Shown piece by piece: positions 32,971-58,901 of a DNA stretch of 64,000 bases. Numbering within the stretch: the first letter of the stretch is position 1; every line of letters begins with the position of its first letter. This DNA comes from an uncultured delta proteobacterium (lineage in GTDB: Bacteria > Desulfobacterota > Desulfobacteria > Desulfobacterales > JAFDCJ01), in NCBI GenBank assembly GCA_963769935.1, contig CAVYNY010000017.1, forward strand, positions 96,001-160,000. Direction: 5' to 3'. The position numbers were made by a program, and so were the translations under genes. The notes below the pieces were generated by a model. It was given only the letters and a program-made list of their open reading frames with translations. It was not told the DNA's origin and did not search any database.

Positions 32971-33906
32971 TTACTCCTTAACGGCAAATACCTGTATGCG
33001 GTTGTTGTTCGTATCGGCAATAAAGATGTTCCCGCTCTTGTTGATGCACAGTTGAGAGGGATAATTTAAAAGACCTTCTTTCCAGCCCATCGCCGACAGT
33101 CGCCCCAGGAAGGATCCATCCGGCCCGAGAATGATGACCCTGCTGCCATTGTGGTCGACCAGATACATATGTCCCCGGTTATCGGTGGTTATGGCGGTCG
33201 GAAACCGCACATATTCCTTCAAGCTTTGGGTCAGCGGAGAAAACTCGGCCGAATCCTTGGCCGCCGAAAATACCTTGGCATTGATGCTATCGATCAAGAA
33301 AACCGTTCCTTTAAAATCCACTGTGAGATCCGAGAGGAAACCGTAGGCTTTCGGGAATTTTTTTTGTGCCAGGTATCGGCCCTCAGAGTTCAACACCAGG
33401 ATGCGCTCGGAAAATATATCTAAAATATAGATGTCGTCATTGCGGTCGATACAGAAACTGCGCGGGACATATGTCGGGGAAGGCAGTCCGGTCGGATTCA
33501 GGTCGCCGATAAATGCGCCGGCCGGGGTCAGGCGCACAATTCGGCGTTTTTTGCGGTCGAGCACGAAAATTTCGCCTTTGGAATTTAGCTGCACCCGGGT
33601 CGGATAGGCCAGCTCGGGCATCTTAATTGCCGGCGAGCCGCCGCTGATGGTTTGATCCCGCAATATATAGCGCAGGAGCCGGCCGTTTCCGGTGTCCGCT
33701 ACAATTACATGGGATTGGTCATCACAGGCAATGCCTTCAGGCTGCTTGAGCGGCGTGCCATCCTGGCCGGCGGTGCTCGTCTGAGCGGCATAAATGGTTG
33801 TGATATAGCTGAACTTCAACACTTCGGTCCCGAAAGATGCGTCTGAAATCAACCCGAAACTCAGCGTGGCGGTTATCAGGACAATCGTTTTGATAAATGC
33901 GCTCAT
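32971..33906 (-). CDS. NHL-repeat beta-propeller, exported
   Basis: PEGIA, VADTGNGR, IADTNNNRIQVF; signal peptide from MSAFIK. Confidence 0.9.
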   Translation of the reverse strand: MSAFIKTIVLITATLSFGLISDASFGTEVLKFSYITTIYAAQTSTAGQDGTPLKQPEGIACDDQSHVIVADTGNGRLLRYILRDQTISGGSPAIKMPELAYPTRVQLNSKGEIFVLDRKKRRIVRLTPAGAFIGDLNPTGLPSPTYVPRSFCIDRNDDIYILDIFSERILVLNSEGRYLAQKKFPKAYGFLSDLTVDFKGTVFLIDSINAKVFSAAKDSAEFSPLTQSLKEYVRFPTAITTDNRGHMYLVDHNGSRVIILGPDGSFLGRLSAMGWKEGLLNYPSQLCINKSGNIFIADTNNNRIQVFAVKE

Positions 33907-33919
33907 TGCGGTTGCAGTC

Positions 33920-35239
33920 TCACTTTCTGCGTTCGGGATGGCATTGGATGCACAAGTCATAAGTGGTTTCAAACGGCATCATATTGGGCTTGTTTCCGGT
34001 ACCGCAGGCCTTGTGACAGCTCAGGCATTCTACGGTAAGGTTCTTATCTCTCGGATCAATCACCTTTTCTCCAATCGGGTGGGTGGCATGGGTCTCCCAT
34101 TGATGACATTTACCGCAAATTTTCTCACCGATGGAGAGTTGCGGCGGCATGAGAAGGATATTGTCCGCCGCATGGGGTGCATGACAGGCGGTGCAGTTGC
34201 CCGTTTTTACAGGTTCGCACAAAGTCGTATTTTTGGGATTCTTGATCGACCATTGCTGCAGTCTAACCGTATCTTCATGACATCTGCCGCAGGTTTCGCC
34301 GATGGATTTTTCCAGAAGCTTTTTTTGTTTTGAGCCATGGGGATTGTGGCAGTTCAAACATCCGACTTTGTCCGTCAGCGGCCAGTGCACCCGGCTTTTG
34401 GCGAAAATCGCATCCACCGCATCGCGGTGACATTGCCGGCACAGTTCCGTTCCCTGTTTTTTGGTCCTGGTGGCATTCGGCGAGCCGGCATCGAAATGGC
34501 ATTCGGTGCATTTATTTTCGGCGACCGGAGGATGGACTTGATCGTATAAAATACCGCGGGTATTGGATCCATGCGCGCTGTGGCAGGAGTCGCAGTTCGT
34601 ATCGGCAACAGGGTAGCCCAGGTGTTTGCGTTTAAACGAAAGCTGGTTGGTTTTATGGCATTCCGTGCAGAGGGCCGGAACGACGTTTTTTAACAGATAC
34701 TCCGACCTTGCCGATGCGTGCGGATCGTGGCAGTTGAGGCAGCCTTTGCCCTTCATCAATGGATCGTGTTTGAATCGTACTTCGTTGGTTTGCTTACCGA
34801 CATCCTGGTGGCAATTCACGCACAGCGCATTGCCCGATTTGTTGAGAAGGAAGCTGTTGTCCGACCCGTGGGAATTGTGGCAGGTCTGGCAGTTGCCGTC
34901 AACGACCACCTTATGGATGCTGCGCGCTTTGTCCGGCACGACTTGTTGATGGCAACTGCGGCAAAGCGTATTGACGTCCGAAACTAAAAGATTCTTATGG
35001 CTGGAAGTATGCGGATCATGGCAGGCGGTGCAATCTCCCTTTTTAAGCAGCGGATGCACGGACCGTTGTTTGCTCGTTTTGGCCACGTCCTCGTGGCATT
35101 TCAGGCATTGGGTGCCTTTGGCGCCGGGCTGAAGACTAACCTTATGCTGCGGGTATGCCGGCGCAGCAAAGACCATCGTTAAAATTGTGCCGATTAATAA
35201 AAATCGGGCAGATTTAAGGTTTATAAAGTTTCGTCGCAT
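33920..35239 (-). CDS. 16-heme periplasmic cytochrome c
   Basis: 16 CxxCH counted, paired CxxCHxxH repeats, signal peptide. Confidence 0.9.
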   Translation of the reverse strand: MRRNFINLKSARFLLIGTILTMVFAAPAYPQHKVSLQPGAKGTQCLKCHEDVAKTSKQRSVHPLLKKGDCTACHDPHTSSHKNLLVSDVNTLCRSCHQQVVPDKARSIHKVVVDGNCQTCHNSHGSDNSFLLNKSGNALCVNCHQDVGKQTNEVRFKHDPLMKGKGCLNCHDPHASARSEYLLKNVVPALCTECHKTNQLSFKRKHLGYPVADTNCDSCHSAHGSNTRGILYDQVHPPVAENKCTECHFDAGSPNATRTKKQGTELCRQCHRDAVDAIFAKSRVHWPLTDKVGCLNCHNPHGSKQKKLLEKSIGETCGRCHEDTVRLQQWSIKNPKNTTLCEPVKTGNCTACHAPHAADNILLMPPQLSIGEKICGKCHQWETHATHPIGEKVIDPRDKNLTVECLSCHKACGTGNKPNMMPFETTYDLCIQCHPERRK

Positions 35240-35241
35240 GG

Positions 35242-37317
35242 CTATTCGATAATATGGCAATCCTTACACGTTTTGTCGGCAAACGGCTTGTGGACGACGG
35301 CTTTAAAAAACTTGGGATCTGTAGAGGTATGGGGGTCATGGCATTTGCCGCAATCCATCCGGCCGGCATCGACGCTGAGATGGGCCGTTTGAAAAGAATT
35401 TTTCTTATAGTCATGGCATTTGCCGCACAACAGCTGGATAGGTTGCACCATCAGCGCTCGCTGGGCTGCAAAATGGGGTTTATGACATATTTGGCAATTT
35501 TTGAGATCCGAGGGGGCATGCACGTAAATTTTGGCAGTCGCTGCCATAGCGTCTTTTGCGCCGGCGGCGGGAACCTCGGCTTCAGCAGCCGGTTCTTCCT
35601 CCGGTGGGTACATCCTGGCCTTCAGGTCGCTATGGCAGGTCAGGCAGAGGTCCGGGTAATCCGCCAGCAGAAGATTTTTTAGATTCGCTTTATGCGGACT
35701 GTGACACTTCGTGCACTCGCCGGCGACAACCGGGTCGTGTTTGCTTGCGATGTCTTTTATTTCCTCCCCAGGATCCGTGCCGTGGCAGGAATAGCATAAA
35801 AATCCCTGTTTGGCGACGGTCATTCCGGCAAAATCGCTGCCGTGCGCAGCATGGCATTTAAGACACTTTCCGTTTTTAAAAAACTCATGGTTGGACCCTC
35901 CCACGGCTGCCTTCATCAAGTCGCCATGGCAAGCGGCACACAGTTTCGGGTCGTCTATGGCGGCCACTAGAAGTTTATTGTTCTTTGCGCCATGGGATCG
36001 ATGGCAGGACTCGCATTTTCCTTCGATTACCGGCAGGTGCGTATTCGTCTTCAGGAATTTGACTTCAGCGTCAAAATGACAGGCGTAACAAACCGTGTCG
36101 GTCTTGCCTTTGAGCATCCCGTAGAAATTCGATCCGTGGGGGTTGTGACAGACGTCGCATTTGCCCTCGGAAAAAGGCTCATGTCGGATGTGATCTTTTT
36201 GAGCCTCTTTGGTCTTCGCATGGCAGCCCAGGCATAGCGGCTGCTCTTCGGCCAGCAGAAGTTTTTGGGTTTTGGCCGCGTGTTTTTGATGGCAGGAAAG
36301 ACAGCCCCGGCCATCGGTTACCGCTTTGTGAGGGACGCTTGCCGGTACGTTTTTATTTTCGTGGCAGTCAAAACAGAGCGTATTGCCCGCTTTGACCAGC
36401 AAAACCGGATTCTCCGAAGCATGGGGAGCATGACAGGCAATGCATTTTCCTTCCCGGAAGGGTTGATGTTCGATGGTGCCGCCGGCCTTCAGATCGGCAG
36501 CCTTGTGGCAATCTTCGCAAAGTTGGGCGCCTTTTTGCCTGGTGGCAAAGGGGTTTTGAGACGAGGACGCATTGTGGCATTTTTCACAATCAAGCTTGAC
36601 CACCGGGGAATGCGCGCTGGTTTTTAAAAGCTTAAGTTGAGCCGAGGCGTGAGGGCTGTGACAGCCGGCGCAGGAAGCAGTTTCCACCGGATATCCGCGA
36701 TGGGCAGTTTTGAAAGCGGCCTGTTGGACGTTGTGGCAGGACATACACAGCGGCACTTCTTTCTTCCTGAGAAGATCGGCCTGATCCGAGCTGTGCGAGA
36801 AGTGACAGGTGTCGCAGGAATCTGTCTGCAACGGCTTATGCACCACCTTCTTTTGAAAGGCTTTTTGCGGATGGCACTGGTAGCACAGATCACTGCCGGC
36901 AGCCTTTAAGAGAGGGGTTGTCTGGGACGCATGCGGGTTATGGCAATCGGTGCATTTCCCGGTTTTCAAAGCGGTGTGCACCGCGGCTTTATCCAGTCCG
37001 ATTTTTTCAGGAGGATGGCAGGAATAGCAGAGGTCGTTGCCTTCCCTTTTCAGCAGTAGTTTAGGGATGATGCCGTGTCGCAGGTGGCAGTCTTCGCACT
37101 TTTTTTCCTTGACCACCGCGTGCACATCCTTCATTGCCAGATATTTTGCCGCAAAGTCGCTGTGGCAATCCAGACATTCCTTGCGGGCGAATTTACCCGT
37201 TTGGCGTGAAGGGGCCGGAACGCAGGCGGCTACATAAATAAAAATGCCGGCGGCCAATAGAATGGCGACTCCGGCAGATCCGGACAGCCTCGGTAATGAA
37301 ATCGTGGTTTTCCTCAT
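35242..37317 (-). CDS. 26-heme cytochrome c lipoprotein
   Basis: 26 CxxCH counted; lipobox VAAC. Confidence 0.9.
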   Translation of the reverse strand: MRKTTISLPRLSGSAGVAILLAAGIFIYVAACVPAPSRQTGKFARKECLDCHSDFAAKYLAMKDVHAVVKEKKCEDCHLRHGIIPKLLLKREGNDLCYSCHPPEKIGLDKAAVHTALKTGKCTDCHNPHASQTTPLLKAAGSDLCYQCHPQKAFQKKVVHKPLQTDSCDTCHFSHSSDQADLLRKKEVPLCMSCHNVQQAAFKTAHRGYPVETASCAGCHSPHASAQLKLLKTSAHSPVVKLDCEKCHNASSSQNPFATRQKGAQLCEDCHKAADLKAGGTIEHQPFREGKCIACHAPHASENPVLLVKAGNTLCFDCHENKNVPASVPHKAVTDGRGCLSCHQKHAAKTQKLLLAEEQPLCLGCHAKTKEAQKDHIRHEPFSEGKCDVCHNPHGSNFYGMLKGKTDTVCYACHFDAEVKFLKTNTHLPVIEGKCESCHRSHGAKNNKLLVAAIDDPKLCAACHGDLMKAAVGGSNHEFFKNGKCLKCHAAHGSDFAGMTVAKQGFLCYSCHGTDPGEEIKDIASKHDPVVAGECTKCHSPHKANLKNLLLADYPDLCLTCHSDLKARMYPPEEEPAAEAEVPAAGAKDAMAATAKIYVHAPSDLKNCQICHKPHFAAQRALMVQPIQLLCGKCHDYKKNSFQTAHLSVDAGRMDCGKCHDPHTSTDPKFFKAVVHKPFADKTCKDCHIIE

Positions 37318-37346
37318 TGGATGGTGAATGTTAACCGCAGTATCCT

Positions 37347-39083
37347 TTATCTTTTAAGGTCGGTGCGATAAATTTTAACGGGATAATATGCTTTGAGCTT
37401 TTCGGCCCAAACCTCCACGGACTTTTTCAGTTTATCATCGAAAACCTTTTTGGCAATTTCCTGCTTGACCTCTTCAAAGGGTTGAAGCTGGGCCGGGACG
37501 ACCTGATAGATGTACAGCACATAATACCGGCCCCCGGGGCCTTCATACAGTCTGAAATCACCGGTCTTCGCTCTGGAAACCGCTTTTTGCACATTTTCCG
37601 GCATACTGCTTTCCGTTATCAGACTGCCGTCAAACTTTAAAATTCCTGGGGTATTTTGATCGACCTGACCTTCGGCATTGGAGCCTAGCCAGTTGAAGTC
37701 GGTACCCTTTTTGAGCTTATCGATGGCCGCCACGGCAGCGCTTCTTTGGTCAAATACGAGGCTTTTAATTCTCAACAGCCGGGGGGCGGTGTATTGTTCA
37801 GCGTTTTGGGAATAATAGGTTTTCAAATCCTTCGGTTCAAGCTTAATATCGGGGGCGACAGCCTTGCGGATGAACTCATCGAAGAGCAGAGAAATTTCAT
37901 ATTCCGTAACTTTTTGGCGATATTCGTCTGTTTTATCGAGTCCCTGCTTCAAGGCTTCTTTCAACAGCAGTCGTTTTTGAAGCATTTCTTCCAGGATGTC
38001 GCTTTTTTTGCTGTTGATTCTTTTATTTTTGGCGGCCAATTGGACTCCGTGGTAGAATTTCGCTTCAACGGCCGCGCTGAGGTCTGAAACGGTAATGGGT
38101 TTTTCGCCTTTAATCCGGGCCAGAACTCTTTTGTCCGTCAACAAATTTTCAAATCCCGGCTTTTCAGCTTCGTAGTCCAGCCGGTCTAAAAGCGTTTGAT
38201 CCAATTCAACATATTTTTTTTTCAATTCGCTGTAGTATTGTCTGGCCGCCTTAACTTTCTTCTGGTTAAGTGCCTGCCGCCGCGCTATTTCCTTGGCCTC
38301 CGGGTCCTCATCAGCCGGATAGCGGATATCTTCCAGTTTAAAGACGACAAATCCCTTTTTGCCGATGGAAAGAACCGGGCTGACCGATCCGACTTCCATT
38401 TGCGCCGCAAGCTGGGCCACCGGCAGCGTCAGGTCTTTGCTTTTTACATAATCGGCCCGGTTGTCCGCTTCGCCGATGCCCCAGTCAAGGGCTTTTTGCA
38501 AAACGTCGTCAAAACTGACGCCCGCTTTCAGCTGGGTTTGAATCTGCCTGGCAGCATCTTCCGTTTTCAGCCGAAGCGATTTGATCTTAAACTCCTTTAC
38601 CATGGATTTATAGCGCTGTTCAACCACGTCCTCATCGGCCGTAATATCTTTGACATAGCCTTCAAGCAAAAGCTCCCTGAGGGCTTGTTTTGAGTATGTA
38701 TCCAGCGCCGCTTTAATTTCGGGAAGCTCATCCAGTCCCATGTTCCTTGCTTCCAATACGATCAATCGCGTATTGATCAGGCGCTGCATAATGTCGGAAA
38801 AATCGATCCGGCCGGCTTTTTCTCCCCTGGGCCGGGCGGCATGGGAAGCGGCCACGGCGCGATCCAATTCCTCCAGGCTGATCGGATCGTCATTGACGGT
38901 TGCGACGGCTTCTTTACCGTCAATGATCGGCAATTTCTGATCAGACGCCTTGCCGTAGCCGGCAGCTGCCAGGAGAAAAAAACTGGCCGTCACGATGATC
39001 AGCACTGATGAAACTGGTTTCAGGCGCATTGGATTCCTTTTCGGATGTGCTCTCGTGGGTACACTGAGGCGGAAAAAAGCCAT
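37347..39083 (-). CDS. SurA/PpiC-like peptidyl-prolyl isomerase chaperone (duplicated module)
   Basis: VATVNDDPIS, LIVLEARNMGLD and a second copy VLARIKGEKPIT; alternative start at 39029. Confidence 0.8.
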   Translation of the reverse strand: MAFFRLSVPTRAHPKRNPMRLKPVSSVLIIVTASFFLLAAAGYGKASDQKLPIIDGKEAVATVNDDPISLEELDRAVAASHAARPRGEKAGRIDFSDIMQRLINTRLIVLEARNMGLDELPEIKAALDTYSKQALRELLLEGYVKDITADEDVVEQRYKSMVKEFKIKSLRLKTEDAARQIQTQLKAGVSFDDVLQKALDWGIGEADNRADYVKSKDLTLPVAQLAAQMEVGSVSPVLSIGKKGFVVFKLEDIRYPADEDPEAKEIARRQALNQKKVKAARQYYSELKKKYVELDQTLLDRLDYEAEKPGFENLLTDKRVLARIKGEKPITVSDLSAAVEAKFYHGVQLAAKNKRINSKKSDILEEMLQKRLLLKEALKQGLDKTDEYRQKVTEYEISLLFDEFIRKAVAPDIKLEPKDLKTYYSQNAEQYTAPRLLRIKSLVFDQRSAAVAAIDKLKKGTDFNWLGSNAEGQVDQNTPGILKFDGSLITESSMPENVQKAVSRAKTGDFRLYEGPGGRYYVLYIYQVVPAQLQPFEEVKQEIAKKVFDDKLKKSVEVWAEKLKAYYPVKIYRTDLKR

Positions 39084-39132: not shown

Positions 39133-39147
39133 GCAATTACTATGCCA
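39133..39147 (-). promoter_or_regulatory. Sigma54 -24/-12 promoter (chaperone-26heme-16heme-NHL operon)
   Basis: TGGCAT-AGTAA-TTGC on the minus strand. Confidence 0.85.
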
Positions 39148-39405: not shown

Positions 39406-39420
39406 TGGCACACTCGTTGC
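39406..39420 (+). promoter_or_regulatory. Sigma54 -24/-12 promoter (NHL-omcS operon)
   Basis: TGGCAC-ACTCG-TTGC, consensus match. Confidence 0.9.
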
Positions 39421-39486: not shown

Positions 39487-40473
39487 ATGAAACGTATGCT
39501 CGACAAAATCAAACACTCCATTTCAGCCGCTCTTCGACCGGCGGTTGTCACATTTTTGTTGAGTGCCGTATGGGTTGCAGGTGTCCCGGCCGAAGTTCAG
39601 GCCGAGGTTCAAACCTCCTTCCTTTACCGGCTGTCCAATTTTTCAGGACCCGTGGCTTCCAATTGGGCAACGATCTCAGTTGATCAAGCCAGAGACGAAA
39701 TTTATGTAACCGACGGCCAGTCGGGCATTATCCGGATTTATAATGATCGGGGCATGGAGGTTTATCGTTTTGGCGATGACTGGAATTCAGGCAGCCTCCT
39801 GTTGGCAGCCGCCGCCCGAAATGATGGAAACATTCTCGTCTTGACCCGCAGGTTCTCCGCAAATTCAATTGTGCTCTGCAATTTCAGAGGCGAGTTTCTG
39901 GCCGTACTTGCTTTGCAAGACTTCCCCCCCGATTTTTCGGGTTTTTCACCGACAGACATGGTTTACCGAGACAGACGGCTTTACCTGCTGGATAATAATT
40001 TACTGCGGCTGGCCGTCACCGATTCCAACGGTTATTTCATGGCCGGCTACGATCTCGGCGCGCTGTTGAAGATCGACGATAATAAGCGAATGGCAACCCA
40101 GCTCGGCGGGTTCAGCGTGGATCACGCTGGGAACATATACTTTACCGTGCCGGTGCTTTTTACAGCCTTTAAACTTTCGCCGGACGGTAAGCTGGCAAGC
40201 TTCGGCAAGCCGGGAAGCGCTCCCGGCCGGTTTAACAATCTGGGGGGAATTGTCGCCGATGACCAGGGCTATATTTATGTGGCGGACCGGTTAAAGTCGG
40301 TTGTCATCATATTTGATAAAGATTTCAAGTTCGTGAATGAGTTCGGTTATCGCGGACGCCGGCCGTATAATCTGATAGCTCCCAATGATTTGGATCTGGA
40401 TGCCGCCGGCCGGCTGTATGTGTCCCAGCTGGCCAGTATCGGCGTCAGCGTCTTTAAAATTATCTACCAGTAG
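39487..40473 (+). CDS. NHL-repeat beta-propeller upstream of omcS
   Basis: FGKPGSAPGRF, IYVADRLKS, EFGYRG; the ATG at 39487 lies downstream of the promoter. Confidence 0.88.
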   Translation: MKRMLDKIKHSISAALRPAVVTFLLSAVWVAGVPAEVQAEVQTSFLYRLSNFSGPVASNWATISVDQARDEIYVTDGQSGIIRIYNDRGMEVYRFGDDWNSGSLLLAAAARNDGNILVLTRRFSANSIVLCNFRGEFLAVLALQDFPPDFSGFSPTDMVYRDRRLYLLDNNLLRLAVTDSNGYFMAGYDLGALLKIDDNKRMATQLGGFSVDHAGNIYFTVPVLFTAFKLSPDGKLASFGKPGSAPGRFNNLGGIVADDQGYIYVADRLKSVVIIFDKDFKFVNEFGYRGRRPYNLIAPNDLDLDAAGRLYVSQLASIGVSVFKIIYQ

Positions 40474-40576
40474 CTTCAAACATCTGTAGAAGCTGCCGGA
40501 AAAAAGGAGGTGATGAAACTCAGGTAGGGATAAGGATTTTTTTTGGTTTCCGAATTTTAACGGTCGATACAAAATT

Positions 40577-40664
40577 TTCCCTCCGAAAAAGGTAAACCCA
40601 TCGAAAGGTGGGGTCACAAAGCCGACGGGTCCTCATTAACGGGGGACGGCCGGGCTGCCGGGAA
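40577..40664 (+). ncRNA. c-di-GMP-I (GEMM-I) riboswitch
   Basis: GGTAAACCCATC-GAAA-GGTGGGGTCACAAAGCC..GGGTCC..GGACGGCCGGGCTGCCG: P2 with GNRA loop, CAAAG junction, P3; 25 nt before the omcS ATG. Confidence 0.9.
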
Positions 40665-40688
40665 GATGAAGATAAGGAGAACAACTGG

Positions 40689-41873
40689 ATGAAAACAATT
40701 AAATTATGCTTAGCCATGATGGCCGCGGTCCTGCTGTCCTTCGGATTAAGTACCGCGGCCCTGGCCTTCCACAACGGCGGCGTGGCGCACTGTGACGGCT
40801 GCCATACCATGCACAACTCGGAAAACGGCCAATCCATCATTGAAGGGGGAGTTGTCGGCGTAACCGGCGACTACCTGACCAAGGGCACCGACCCCGGCTC
40901 CACGTGTTTGACCTGTCACGCGGGAAGCGGCAGCTACCATGTACTCAGCGATGACGGCTCCAACCAGACCCCGGGCGGCGATTTCTACTGGCTGACCAAA
41001 ACTTTCAGCTATCCGGTGCGCAGCAGCACTGTAACCCGCCACGGGTACAACTTCGGGCACACGATCATCGCCGCAGATTTCGGTTTTTTGACTCCGGACC
41101 CCGATCTGGCTCAAGCCCCCGGAGGCACCTTTCCATCGGCACTGTTGACCTGCAGCAGCTGTCATGACCCGCACGGTGTCAAGGTTAACCGGACCGGACC
41201 CATTGCCGGATCAGGCTCCTACGGTAACGCACCTCCGCCCGGCGCGGATCTGGGAAATTATCGGCTTCTGGGCGACATCGGATACCGGCCGGCGAGCGGC
41301 ATCGTGACATTTACAAACTCGCCGCCGATCGCCGCCACCACCTCAATTGCTCCCAATCCAGAGAGCGACAGCAACCACACCGACTACGGCAAGGGCATGT
41401 CCGAATGGTGCTCCAACTGCCACACGGCTTTTTTGGCACCCGGGGGGGCGGGACAGCATAAGCATCCGGCCGGCAATACCTCCGGCCTGGGCGCCGCCGG
41501 CATTTTCAATAACTACAACAGCTATGTCAAGACAGGCGATTTAACGGGAAATGCCGCAACCTCTTACCTGGCGCTGGTGCCTTTTGAAAGGCAGATCTCG
41601 GATTCGACGCTGTTAGATTCGCACAGTACCCAGGGACCGGATGGAAGTTCGAACGTTATGTGCCTGTCGTGCCATCGGGCCCATATTTCGGCTTTTCCGA
41701 ACTCGGGGCGCTGGGATTTCGAAACCGAACTGCTGGTCAATTCCCATCCGCAGGATACCGATACGGGAGCAATTGCCGGGGATCAGCTGGCCAGCTACTA
41801 CGGCCGGGATATTGCGACCGTTTTCGATCCCGAGCAGCGGAGTCTGTGCAACAAATGCCACGTCAAGGACTAA
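40689..41873 (+). CDS. omcS: OmcS-family hexaheme nanowire cytochrome
   Basis: Mature start FHNGGVAHCDGCHTMHNS, TPGGDF, APGGTFP, CSSCHDPHG, GMSEWCSNCH, YNSYVKTGDLTG, CLSCHRAH, C-terminus QRSLCNKCHVKD; closely parallels Geobacter OmcS/OmcT. Confidence 0.93.
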   Translation: MKTIKLCLAMMAAVLLSFGLSTAALAFHNGGVAHCDGCHTMHNSENGQSIIEGGVVGVTGDYLTKGTDPGSTCLTCHAGSGSYHVLSDDGSNQTPGGDFYWLTKTFSYPVRSSTVTRHGYNFGHTIIAADFGFLTPDPDLAQAPGGTFPSALLTCSSCHDPHGVKVNRTGPIAGSGSYGNAPPPGADLGNYRLLGDIGYRPASGIVTFTNSPPIAATTSIAPNPESDSNHTDYGKGMSEWCSNCHTAFLAPGGAGQHKHPAGNTSGLGAAGIFNNYNSYVKTGDLTGNAATSYLALVPFERQISDSTLLDSHSTQGPDGSSNVMCLSCHRAHISAFPNSGRWDFETELLVNSHPQDTDTGAIAGDQLASYYGRDIATVFDPEQRSLCNKCHVKD

Positions 41874-41895: not shown

Positions 41896-41932
41896 AAATG
41901 GCTGGCGGCGCTCTGCCGCCGGCTATTTTTTT
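41896..41932 (+). terminator. Rho-independent terminator after omcS
   Basis: AAATGGCTGGCGGC-GCTCT-GCCGCCGGCTATTTTTTT. Confidence 0.85.
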
Positions 41933-58886: not shown

Positions 58887-58901
58887 TGGCACATACATTG
58901 C
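58887..58901 (+). promoter_or_regulatory. Sigma54 -24/-12 promoter
   Basis: TGGCAC-ATACA-TTGC, consensus match. Confidence 0.9.

Follow-up and report, generated by a model that had tools for sequence, protein, structure and literature searches.

Among the described systems closest to the leader RNA reported here, the Vc2 riboswitch of Vibrio cholerae (Rfam RF01051) is one in which position 20 has been linked to ligand choice: according to the available part of PMC6140456, G20 recognizes one guanine at its Hoogsteen edge and C92 forms a pair with the second, the wild type (G20) has picomolar affinity for c-di-GMP and binds cGAMP at 10 uM, and the G20A mutant binds both c-di-GMP and cGAMP. Besides, mutations of the lower P2 alter selectivity, position 20 being a selectivity factor and no hard filter, and Vc2 is a translational OFF switch, as stated in the accessible part of PMC9262584. 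For Geobacter, the association of GEMM with omcS dates back to 2007 (PMC1950547, available part). The accessible sections of PMC6456294 report 17 GEMM-I RNAs in G. sulfurreducens, an omcST riboswitch sensitive to cGAMP and c-di-GMP alike, and a gacA effect that is smallest, 2-3 fold, for omcST. In the same species, two Ser-type enzymes (PMC8835794, available part) and an increase of omcS expression at low c-di-GMP (PMC12285248, available part) have been reported. OmcS homologs in sulfate reducers and other bacteria have already been published, the word 'riboswitch' being absent from the main texts of these publications. A literature search found no description of G20 omcS leaders or of the anti-Shine-Dalgarno (anti-SD) platform presented below, of which the supplements of the primary papers may contain some.

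The leader compared here precedes an omcS-type gene in the window, a term used for the whole 64-kb stretch of DNA that was analysed. The host genome (8.0 Mb, 51% GC, 96.7% complete) contains dsrA, a key sulfate-reduction gene, and belongs to the same phylum as the Geobacter family, but stands outside that family. The gene and its surroundings comprise the following features:

32971-39083, minus strand: PPIase, multiheme cytochrome and NHL genes
39133..39147, minus strand: match to the sigma54 -24/-12 pattern, divergently oriented, 5' of the PPIase, multiheme cytochrome and NHL genes
39406..39420, plus strand: match to the sigma54 -24/-12 consensus, from which the NHL-omcS transcript is predicted to start
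39487..40473, plus strand: NHL-repeat gene just 5' of the leader (start given by the ORF caller: 39361)
40503..40514, plus strand: start-less Shine-Dalgarno-like 12-mer, perfect complement of the host 16S 3' tail
40581..40663, plus strand: GEMM-I (c-di-GMP-I) aptamer, with G20=40591, A47=40618, C92=40658 and the P1 pair G14:C93=40585:40659
40689..41873, plus strand: OmcS homolog of 394 aa, hexaheme, with a hydrophobic N-terminal leader
41896..41928, plus strand: intrinsic-terminator-like hairpin 3' of omcS

The ORF at 40689-41873 contains six CxxCH motifs, and its only PDB match is OmcS (6EF8, E 3.6e-77), over the full length. Judged by this full-length homology and by the six motifs, it is an OmcS homolog of the nanowire-cytochrome type, whose formation of filaments is putative. 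The gene is present as a single copy in the genome, its nearest named relatives come from Desulfobacteraceae MAGs (58-60% identical), and a search of 22 congeners located omcS in just 2. Its neighbourhood, which comprises genes for multiheme cytochrome, NHL, PPIase and beta-propeller proteins with a sigma54 activator and a histidine kinase close by, seems to resemble the 'osc' assembly cluster. As regards the NHL gene, the ATG at 39487 is a likelier start than 39361, since it falls after the sigma54 motif. Contigs from four RNA runs of one study span the leader and omcS in close relatives; considered as expression evidence, they were set aside because they are blind to strand, start and level, and are possibly derived from DNA.

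The exact sigma54 pattern is found three times in the window against 0.59 expected, a count reached by 2 of 100 shuffles, whereas a scan tolerating two mismatches stayed at chance level (65 against 75.8). The third exact motif lies at 58887-58901 on the plus strand. A sigma54 site right before the aptamer was also sought, and none was found within 300 nt. Since the plus-strand motif of the cluster is located 1.2 kb upstream, ahead of the NHL gene, sigma54 control of omcS would need read-through, with a transcript that would probably begin at this site. The sigma54 layer put forward in the original prediction can therefore be retained in that -24/-12 motifs head the cluster, although it amounts to a motif situated 1.2 kb from omcS.

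Between the NHL gene and the aptamer, the 12-mer at 40503-40514 lies about 30 nt past the NHL stop and is followed by no properly spaced start codon. Such a motif is present in its strict form in 37 of 89 omcS-type leaders and in a relaxed form in 53 of 89, at a median distance of 88 nt 5' of the aptamer, while the genome background of the strict motif is 0.007 per 250 nt. A conserved upstream mini-ORF was ruled out, as a start codon follows 4-10 nt later in only 3 of the 53 SD-like motifs. A literature search found no paper on a start-less SD motif in this group, in which it may, we presume, work as a STAB-SD-like mRNA stabiliser or as a standby site.

With regard to the aptamer itself, an Rfam scan of the whole window at gathering threshold returned a single match, at 40582-40663(+). 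The highest-scoring model is RF03167, c-di-GMP-I-GGC (67.3 bits for a cut-off of 59, E 9e-14), and RF01051, c-di-GMP-I, reaches 63.4 bits at the same site for a threshold of 35. Base by base, the register assigns G40585 to G14, G40591 to G20, A40618 to A47, C40658 to C92 and C40659 to C93, the bottom pairs of P2 being G40592:C40617 and U40593:A40616; this agrees with the earlier claim of a G just before the P2 pairs and of a C at position 92. The window RNA is thereby like Vc2 in its three-way junction and in the G20/A47/C92 ligand-contact triad of the class, and is set apart from Vc2 by its bottom P2 pairs, G-C and U-A. All its ligand-contact positions and stems are intact, and it lies on the sense strand 5' of omcS, whose ATG follows 26 nt further on. 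The stems of the P1/P2/P3 junction covary: among 25 distinct related aptamers, in an alignment that had been fitted to the tested structure, 96.2% of the cells are paired and both sides have changed in 9 of 15 pairs, while 0 of 500 shuffles is as good and slid controls pair only 31-50%. The A20 that characterizes GEMM-Ib, the 3',3'-cGAMP riboswitch, is absent, the base being G40591. Concerning RF03167, 'GGC' presumably stands for the bases at positions 20, 47 and 92, and the consensus of this model has a G in the column where the window RNA has A40618. Because position 47 is an A, a true GGC variant was ruled out despite the best score, and the triad is the ordinary G20/A47/C92.

The closest counterpart of this leader is the omcS-omcT GEMM-I/Ib element of Geobacter sulfurreducens, and the comparison was made with genome G470, whose encoded OmcS matches the 6EF8 chain. 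The end of an NHL-like gene precedes omcS in G470 too, the RNA occupying the same slot between the two genes, and the G470 leader shares with the window both the P1/anti-SD layout and the upstream start-less SD-like motif. The two omcS aptamers are identical at 68 of 82 positions (83%), whereas the window aptamer reaches at most 72% with the six others of its own genome and at most 67% with the 16 others of G470; because this value exceeds those of all 22 other aptamers compared, the two are regarded as orthologs. The G470 omcS leader carries A20, and the contrast at this position is therefore real: within J1/2, the sole difference is AG against GA at positions 19-20, namely A19-G20 in the window and G19-A20 in the Geobacter omcS switch. 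At the genome scale, 14 of the 17 GEMM-I RNAs of G470 are A20 and 3 are G20, in contrast to the host, whose seven GEMM-I RNAs are all G20, as are those of two congeners (6/6 in G021 and 5/5 in G022). It had been stated at the outset that omcS-type riboswitches of Geobacter typically carry A20 and sense cGAMP; the base is indeed A20 in G470, but the ligand was overstated in view of the dual response described in the available part of PMC6456294. As a speculation, the G adjoining A20 might explain this dual response.

To place the window RNA within its family, a covariance model built from 17 aptamers was used to scan 134 loci around OmcS homologs, some of them overlapping. Directly 5' of OmcS homologs from genomes, 29 distinct aptamers were obtained, with 18 G20, 8 A20, 2 C20 and 1 U20. 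The seven from the Geobacter family are distributed as five A20, one C20, one U20 and no G20, whereas the 22 from outside this family, Nitrospirota and Acidobacteriota records included, comprise 18 G20, three A20 and one C20. Since this majority (18/22) makes G20 the common state outside the Geobacter family, the special rewiring that the original prediction implied is not needed to account for the window aptamer. In metagenomes, a pattern scan that was neutral at positions 15-20 gave at least 80 loci from 121 stretches, 12 loci with a non-parsable 3' end being left out. Among the matches listed, 55 distinct aptamers divide into 35 G20 and 20 A20, and the 45 found with a strict OmcS N-terminal motif into 27 G20 and 18 A20; L295, also among the matches listed, is A20, the N-terminus of its protein being identical to the window protein at 55 of 74 positions. 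When 28 of the 29 downstream OmcS proteins (L076, of 78 aa, was dropped) are arranged in a tree, A20 requires six changes, at least four of which are forced by strongly supported branches. Position 20 has thus changed several times on the OmcS tree, which is unrooted and gives no direction of change.

Several other observations were made along these scans. A20 is nearly always found with G19 (8/8 genome loci, and 17/20 metagenome aptamers among the matches listed) and G20 mostly with A19, the change resembling an AG/GA swap. The C20 and U20 variants of omcS leaders are L020:819-905, L036:1195-1280, L154:2843-2926 and L149:1307-1383, and genome G283 has one omcS paralog with C20 and another with A20. 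The Nitrospirota genome G450 (loci L399 and L079) carries 27 GEMM-I RNAs and an A20 omcS leader; a Ser-type GGDEF was not found among the domains retrieved from it, one of which has Asn at the signature position. Finally, another secreted protein family, devoid of the OmcS N-terminal motif, has this aptamer and anti-SD layout in front of it, with C19-G20 (L259, L265, L272, L280, L300, L304, L305 and L320); several of its members have a CxxCH motif.

The way in which ligand binding would act on omcS involves three further elements of the leader:

40574..40581, plus strand: partner of 40660-40667 in a slipped helix that is predicted for the minimum-energy fold without ligand and leaves the SD open
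40581..40584, plus strand: 5' P1 strand CUCC, predicted anti-SD, with four Watson-Crick pairs with the SD
40674..40681, plus strand: omcS Shine-Dalgarno site AAGGAGAA, 7 nt before the ATG

The 5' P1 strand and the SD region share a helix of 4-9 Watson-Crick pairs in the 22 genome loci with no more than 46 nt between aptamer and start; upstream control 10-mers mostly reach 2-4 pairs and never more than 7. One flanking pair covaries with all four pair types (19/33 against a shuffle mean of 11.1, reached by 11 of 5000 shuffles), while its two neighbours show no covariation excess (24/33 against 24.7 and 6/33 against 8.5), this test covering 33 distinct combinations of related sequences, after six loci without an anchor, among them that of the window, were dropped. 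When P1 is forced closed, the median predicted SD opening goes from 0.00 to 0.52, with a rise above 0.3 in 72 of 92 leaders, a set in which some leaders are duplicates and a few belong to other genes. Because the bound fold raises the predicted SD opening, the omcS-leader family, G470 included, looks in these folding models like a translational ON switch, as opposed to the OFF switch Vc2, and such a mode of action would fit the small mRNA effect on omcST. Transcriptional attenuation was ruled out, as the stretch from the aptamer to the ATG showed nothing resembling a terminator. Folded by itself, 40570-40700 has an unremarkable stability (z -0.92).

The window copy departs from this family pattern. 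Its anti-SD/SD helix has four pairs (-5.4 kcal/mol) against 4-9, mostly 5-9, in 21 relatives and is weaker than that of the Geobacter-type leader, its SD is GGAGA instead of GGAGG, and the slipped 8-bp helix of 40574-40581 with 40660-40667 leaves the SD open without ligand. Imposing the bound fold on this copy lowers its predicted SD opening from 0.85 to 0.55, the sole decrease among the 92 leaders, and across 18 settings the opening changes by only -0.12 to +0.08, so that no switching is predicted by equilibrium folding, a method that leaves out tertiary contacts and co-transcriptional kinetics. Close relatives with an equally short anti-SD retain a small predicted ON effect (from 0.30 to 0.51 in L310, and from 0.28 to 0.45 in L315). 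Moreover, the spacer between aptamer and SD (40663-40673) is polymorphic, with close-relative contigs that lack 6 nt or contain insertions.

Turning to the enzymes that could supply a ligand, 16 GGDEF matches were obtained in the host: ten are canonical Asp types (one with an internal stop), four are degenerate, and two have Ser at the signature position of GacA. These two are:

L115:1001-2374 = G000:C16:381474-382847, minus strand: GacA-like GGDEF with Ser348, a GGDEF motif, Val at the Asn339 position and Thr at the Tyr304 position
L116:1001-1492 = G000:C22:598282-598773, plus strand: GacA-like GGDEF with Ser348, AGDEF, Val at the Asn339 position and Arg at the Tyr304 position

For both domains, the best PDB match is GacA (6D9M), with 119 bits against 84 for the next entry in the case of the C16 domain and 106 against 86 bits for the second. 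The search for Hypr GGDEF genes suggested by the original prediction thus turned out positive, and the argument that c-di-GMP must be the ligand by elimination, no cGAMP synthase being encoded, is ruled out by these Ser-type domains. The host shares with the GacA/GEMM-Ib pathway the Ser signature and the GacA best match, but differs from it by Val at Asn339, by other N-terminal domains (by eye, two PAS-like repeats precede the GGDEF of the C16 protein) and by its receptors, no A20 aptamer being found in the host genome or in the two congeners, where all are G20. Asn339 is one of only two base contacts named for GacA in the available part of PMC6456294, and Arg at the Tyr304 position has been reported to skew products towards c-di-GMP. 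Within the genus, 18 of 23 genomes contain the Val/Ser GacA-like clade; the 28 domains retrieved, with a profile that itself contained four Val/Ser sequences, are all of the Val/Ser type (16 T/V/S/GGDEF and 12 R/V/S/AGDEF). A SMODS search of the host genome, 96.7% complete, gave no match. In G470, only one Ser-type domain stood out among the GGDEF domains retrieved, fewer than the two described for G. sulfurreducens (PMC8835794). Across genomes, retrieval gave Ser/Thr-type GGDEF domains for 10 of the 18 that carry a G20 leader and for 5 of the 6 tested ones that carry an A20 leader, two A20 genomes lying outside this comparison; as the GGDEF retrieval was partial and several genomes are incomplete, absence is soft in these counts. 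The idea that position 20 tracks Hypr presence was thus rejected, there being at most a weak trend, and the ligand is not settled by gene content.

The window aptamer quite probably prefers c-di-GMP. The reading that we favour, at a probability of about 65%, is that the omcS leader contains a G20/A47/C92 GEMM-I RNA orthologous to the Geobacter omcS riboswitch, which likely senses c-di-GMP over cGAMP and is predicted to tune translation and not transcription end. By analogy with published structures, G20 would read the Hoogsteen edge of one guanine and C92 would pair with the other. As the comparison of relatives suggests, the 5' P1 strand (xxCCUCC) would pair with the SD (GGAGGxx) in the family when ligand is lacking, and the ligand would close P1 and free the SD, thereby turning translation ON. 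Since the anti-SD has shrunk to four pairs in the window, the response there would probably be weak or leaky. In favour of this reading are the Rfam matches, the ligand binding of Vc2, the uniform G20 of the host and of the two congeners, the ten canonical GGDEF matches, the identity to the G470 omcS aptamer and the anti-SD complementarity and predicted SD opening in the family. Against it stand the two Ser348-type GGDEF domains with their spread in the genus, the effect of lower-P2 mutations on selectivity, the predicted SD closure in this copy, the two flanking pairs that do not covary and the increase of omcS expression reported for G. sulfurreducens at low c-di-GMP. The earlier proposal that omcS is wired to c-di-GMP accordingly keeps its ligand, which is the likelier one, but its wiring is not supported, since according to the folding predictions ligand does not release the ribosome-binding site here; the 'biofilm state' attached to it was an overstatement extrapolated from G. 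sulfurreducens.

An unlikely alternative is that the aptamer accepts both ligands or that cGAMP is what it senses in vivo, a GacA-like enzyme spread through the genus making cGAMP to which a G20 aptamer on the omcS scaffold responds. The match of the C16 protein to GacA, the Ser/Thr-type domains of 10 among the 18 genomes whose omcS leader is G20, and the G470 ortholog, which is set apart in J1/2 by the AG/GA change alone and whose Geobacter counterpart was described as dual-sensitive in the accessible part of PMC6456294, all speak for it. They have to be set against the strong discrimination of cGAMP by G20 in Vc2 (PMC6140456, available part), the Val at Asn339 in both candidate enzymes, with AGDEF and Arg at Tyr304 in the second, and, in a genome 96.7% complete, the lack of any A20 aptamer, as in the two congeners, and of any SMODS match. 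Somewhat less probable still is a leader that has kept ligand binding while its platform decayed or became inverted, in which case omcS translation would be near-constitutive or mildly ligand-repressed and control would reside at the upstream promoter. The GGAGA site, the four-pair anti-SD of -5.4 kcal/mol, the slipped 8-bp helix that opens the SD without ligand, the 18 settings without predicted switching and the 6-nt gaps in the post-aptamer spacer of close-relative contigs would be explained in this way. However, ligand-contact positions and stems are intact, L310 and L315, whose anti-SD is equally short, keep a slight predicted ON effect, and tertiary contacts and co-transcriptional kinetics lie outside equilibrium folding.

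At the level of the family, it can be proposed as a tentative and rather speculative view that the omcS leader, made of the start-less SD, the GEMM aptamer and the anti-SD, is an old cassette that accompanies the nanowire gene through Desulfobacterota, Nitrospirota and Acidobacteriota, and in which a one-base change would have switched the input from c-di-GMP to cGAMP or back on several occasions; the Val339/Ser348 cyclase without an A20 receptor would then mean either that G20 aptamers read cGAMP or that the enzyme makes another dinucleotide. The window instance is in itself ordinary, as it combines a known riboswitch class and a known gene in the form that is commonest outside Geobacter and its close relatives, and the part worth testing is the repeatedly changed specificity base together with the unexplained Val/Ser GacA-like cyclase clade. 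Taken together, these comparisons suggest that control of the c-di-GMP type is no less widespread among OmcS nanowire genes than the cGAMP type of Geobacter. The natural series of G20, A20, C20 and U20 on one scaffold can be used to test how far position 20 sets specificity, and the same series could test whether nanowire output is tied to permanent or to transient attachment depending on the lineage.
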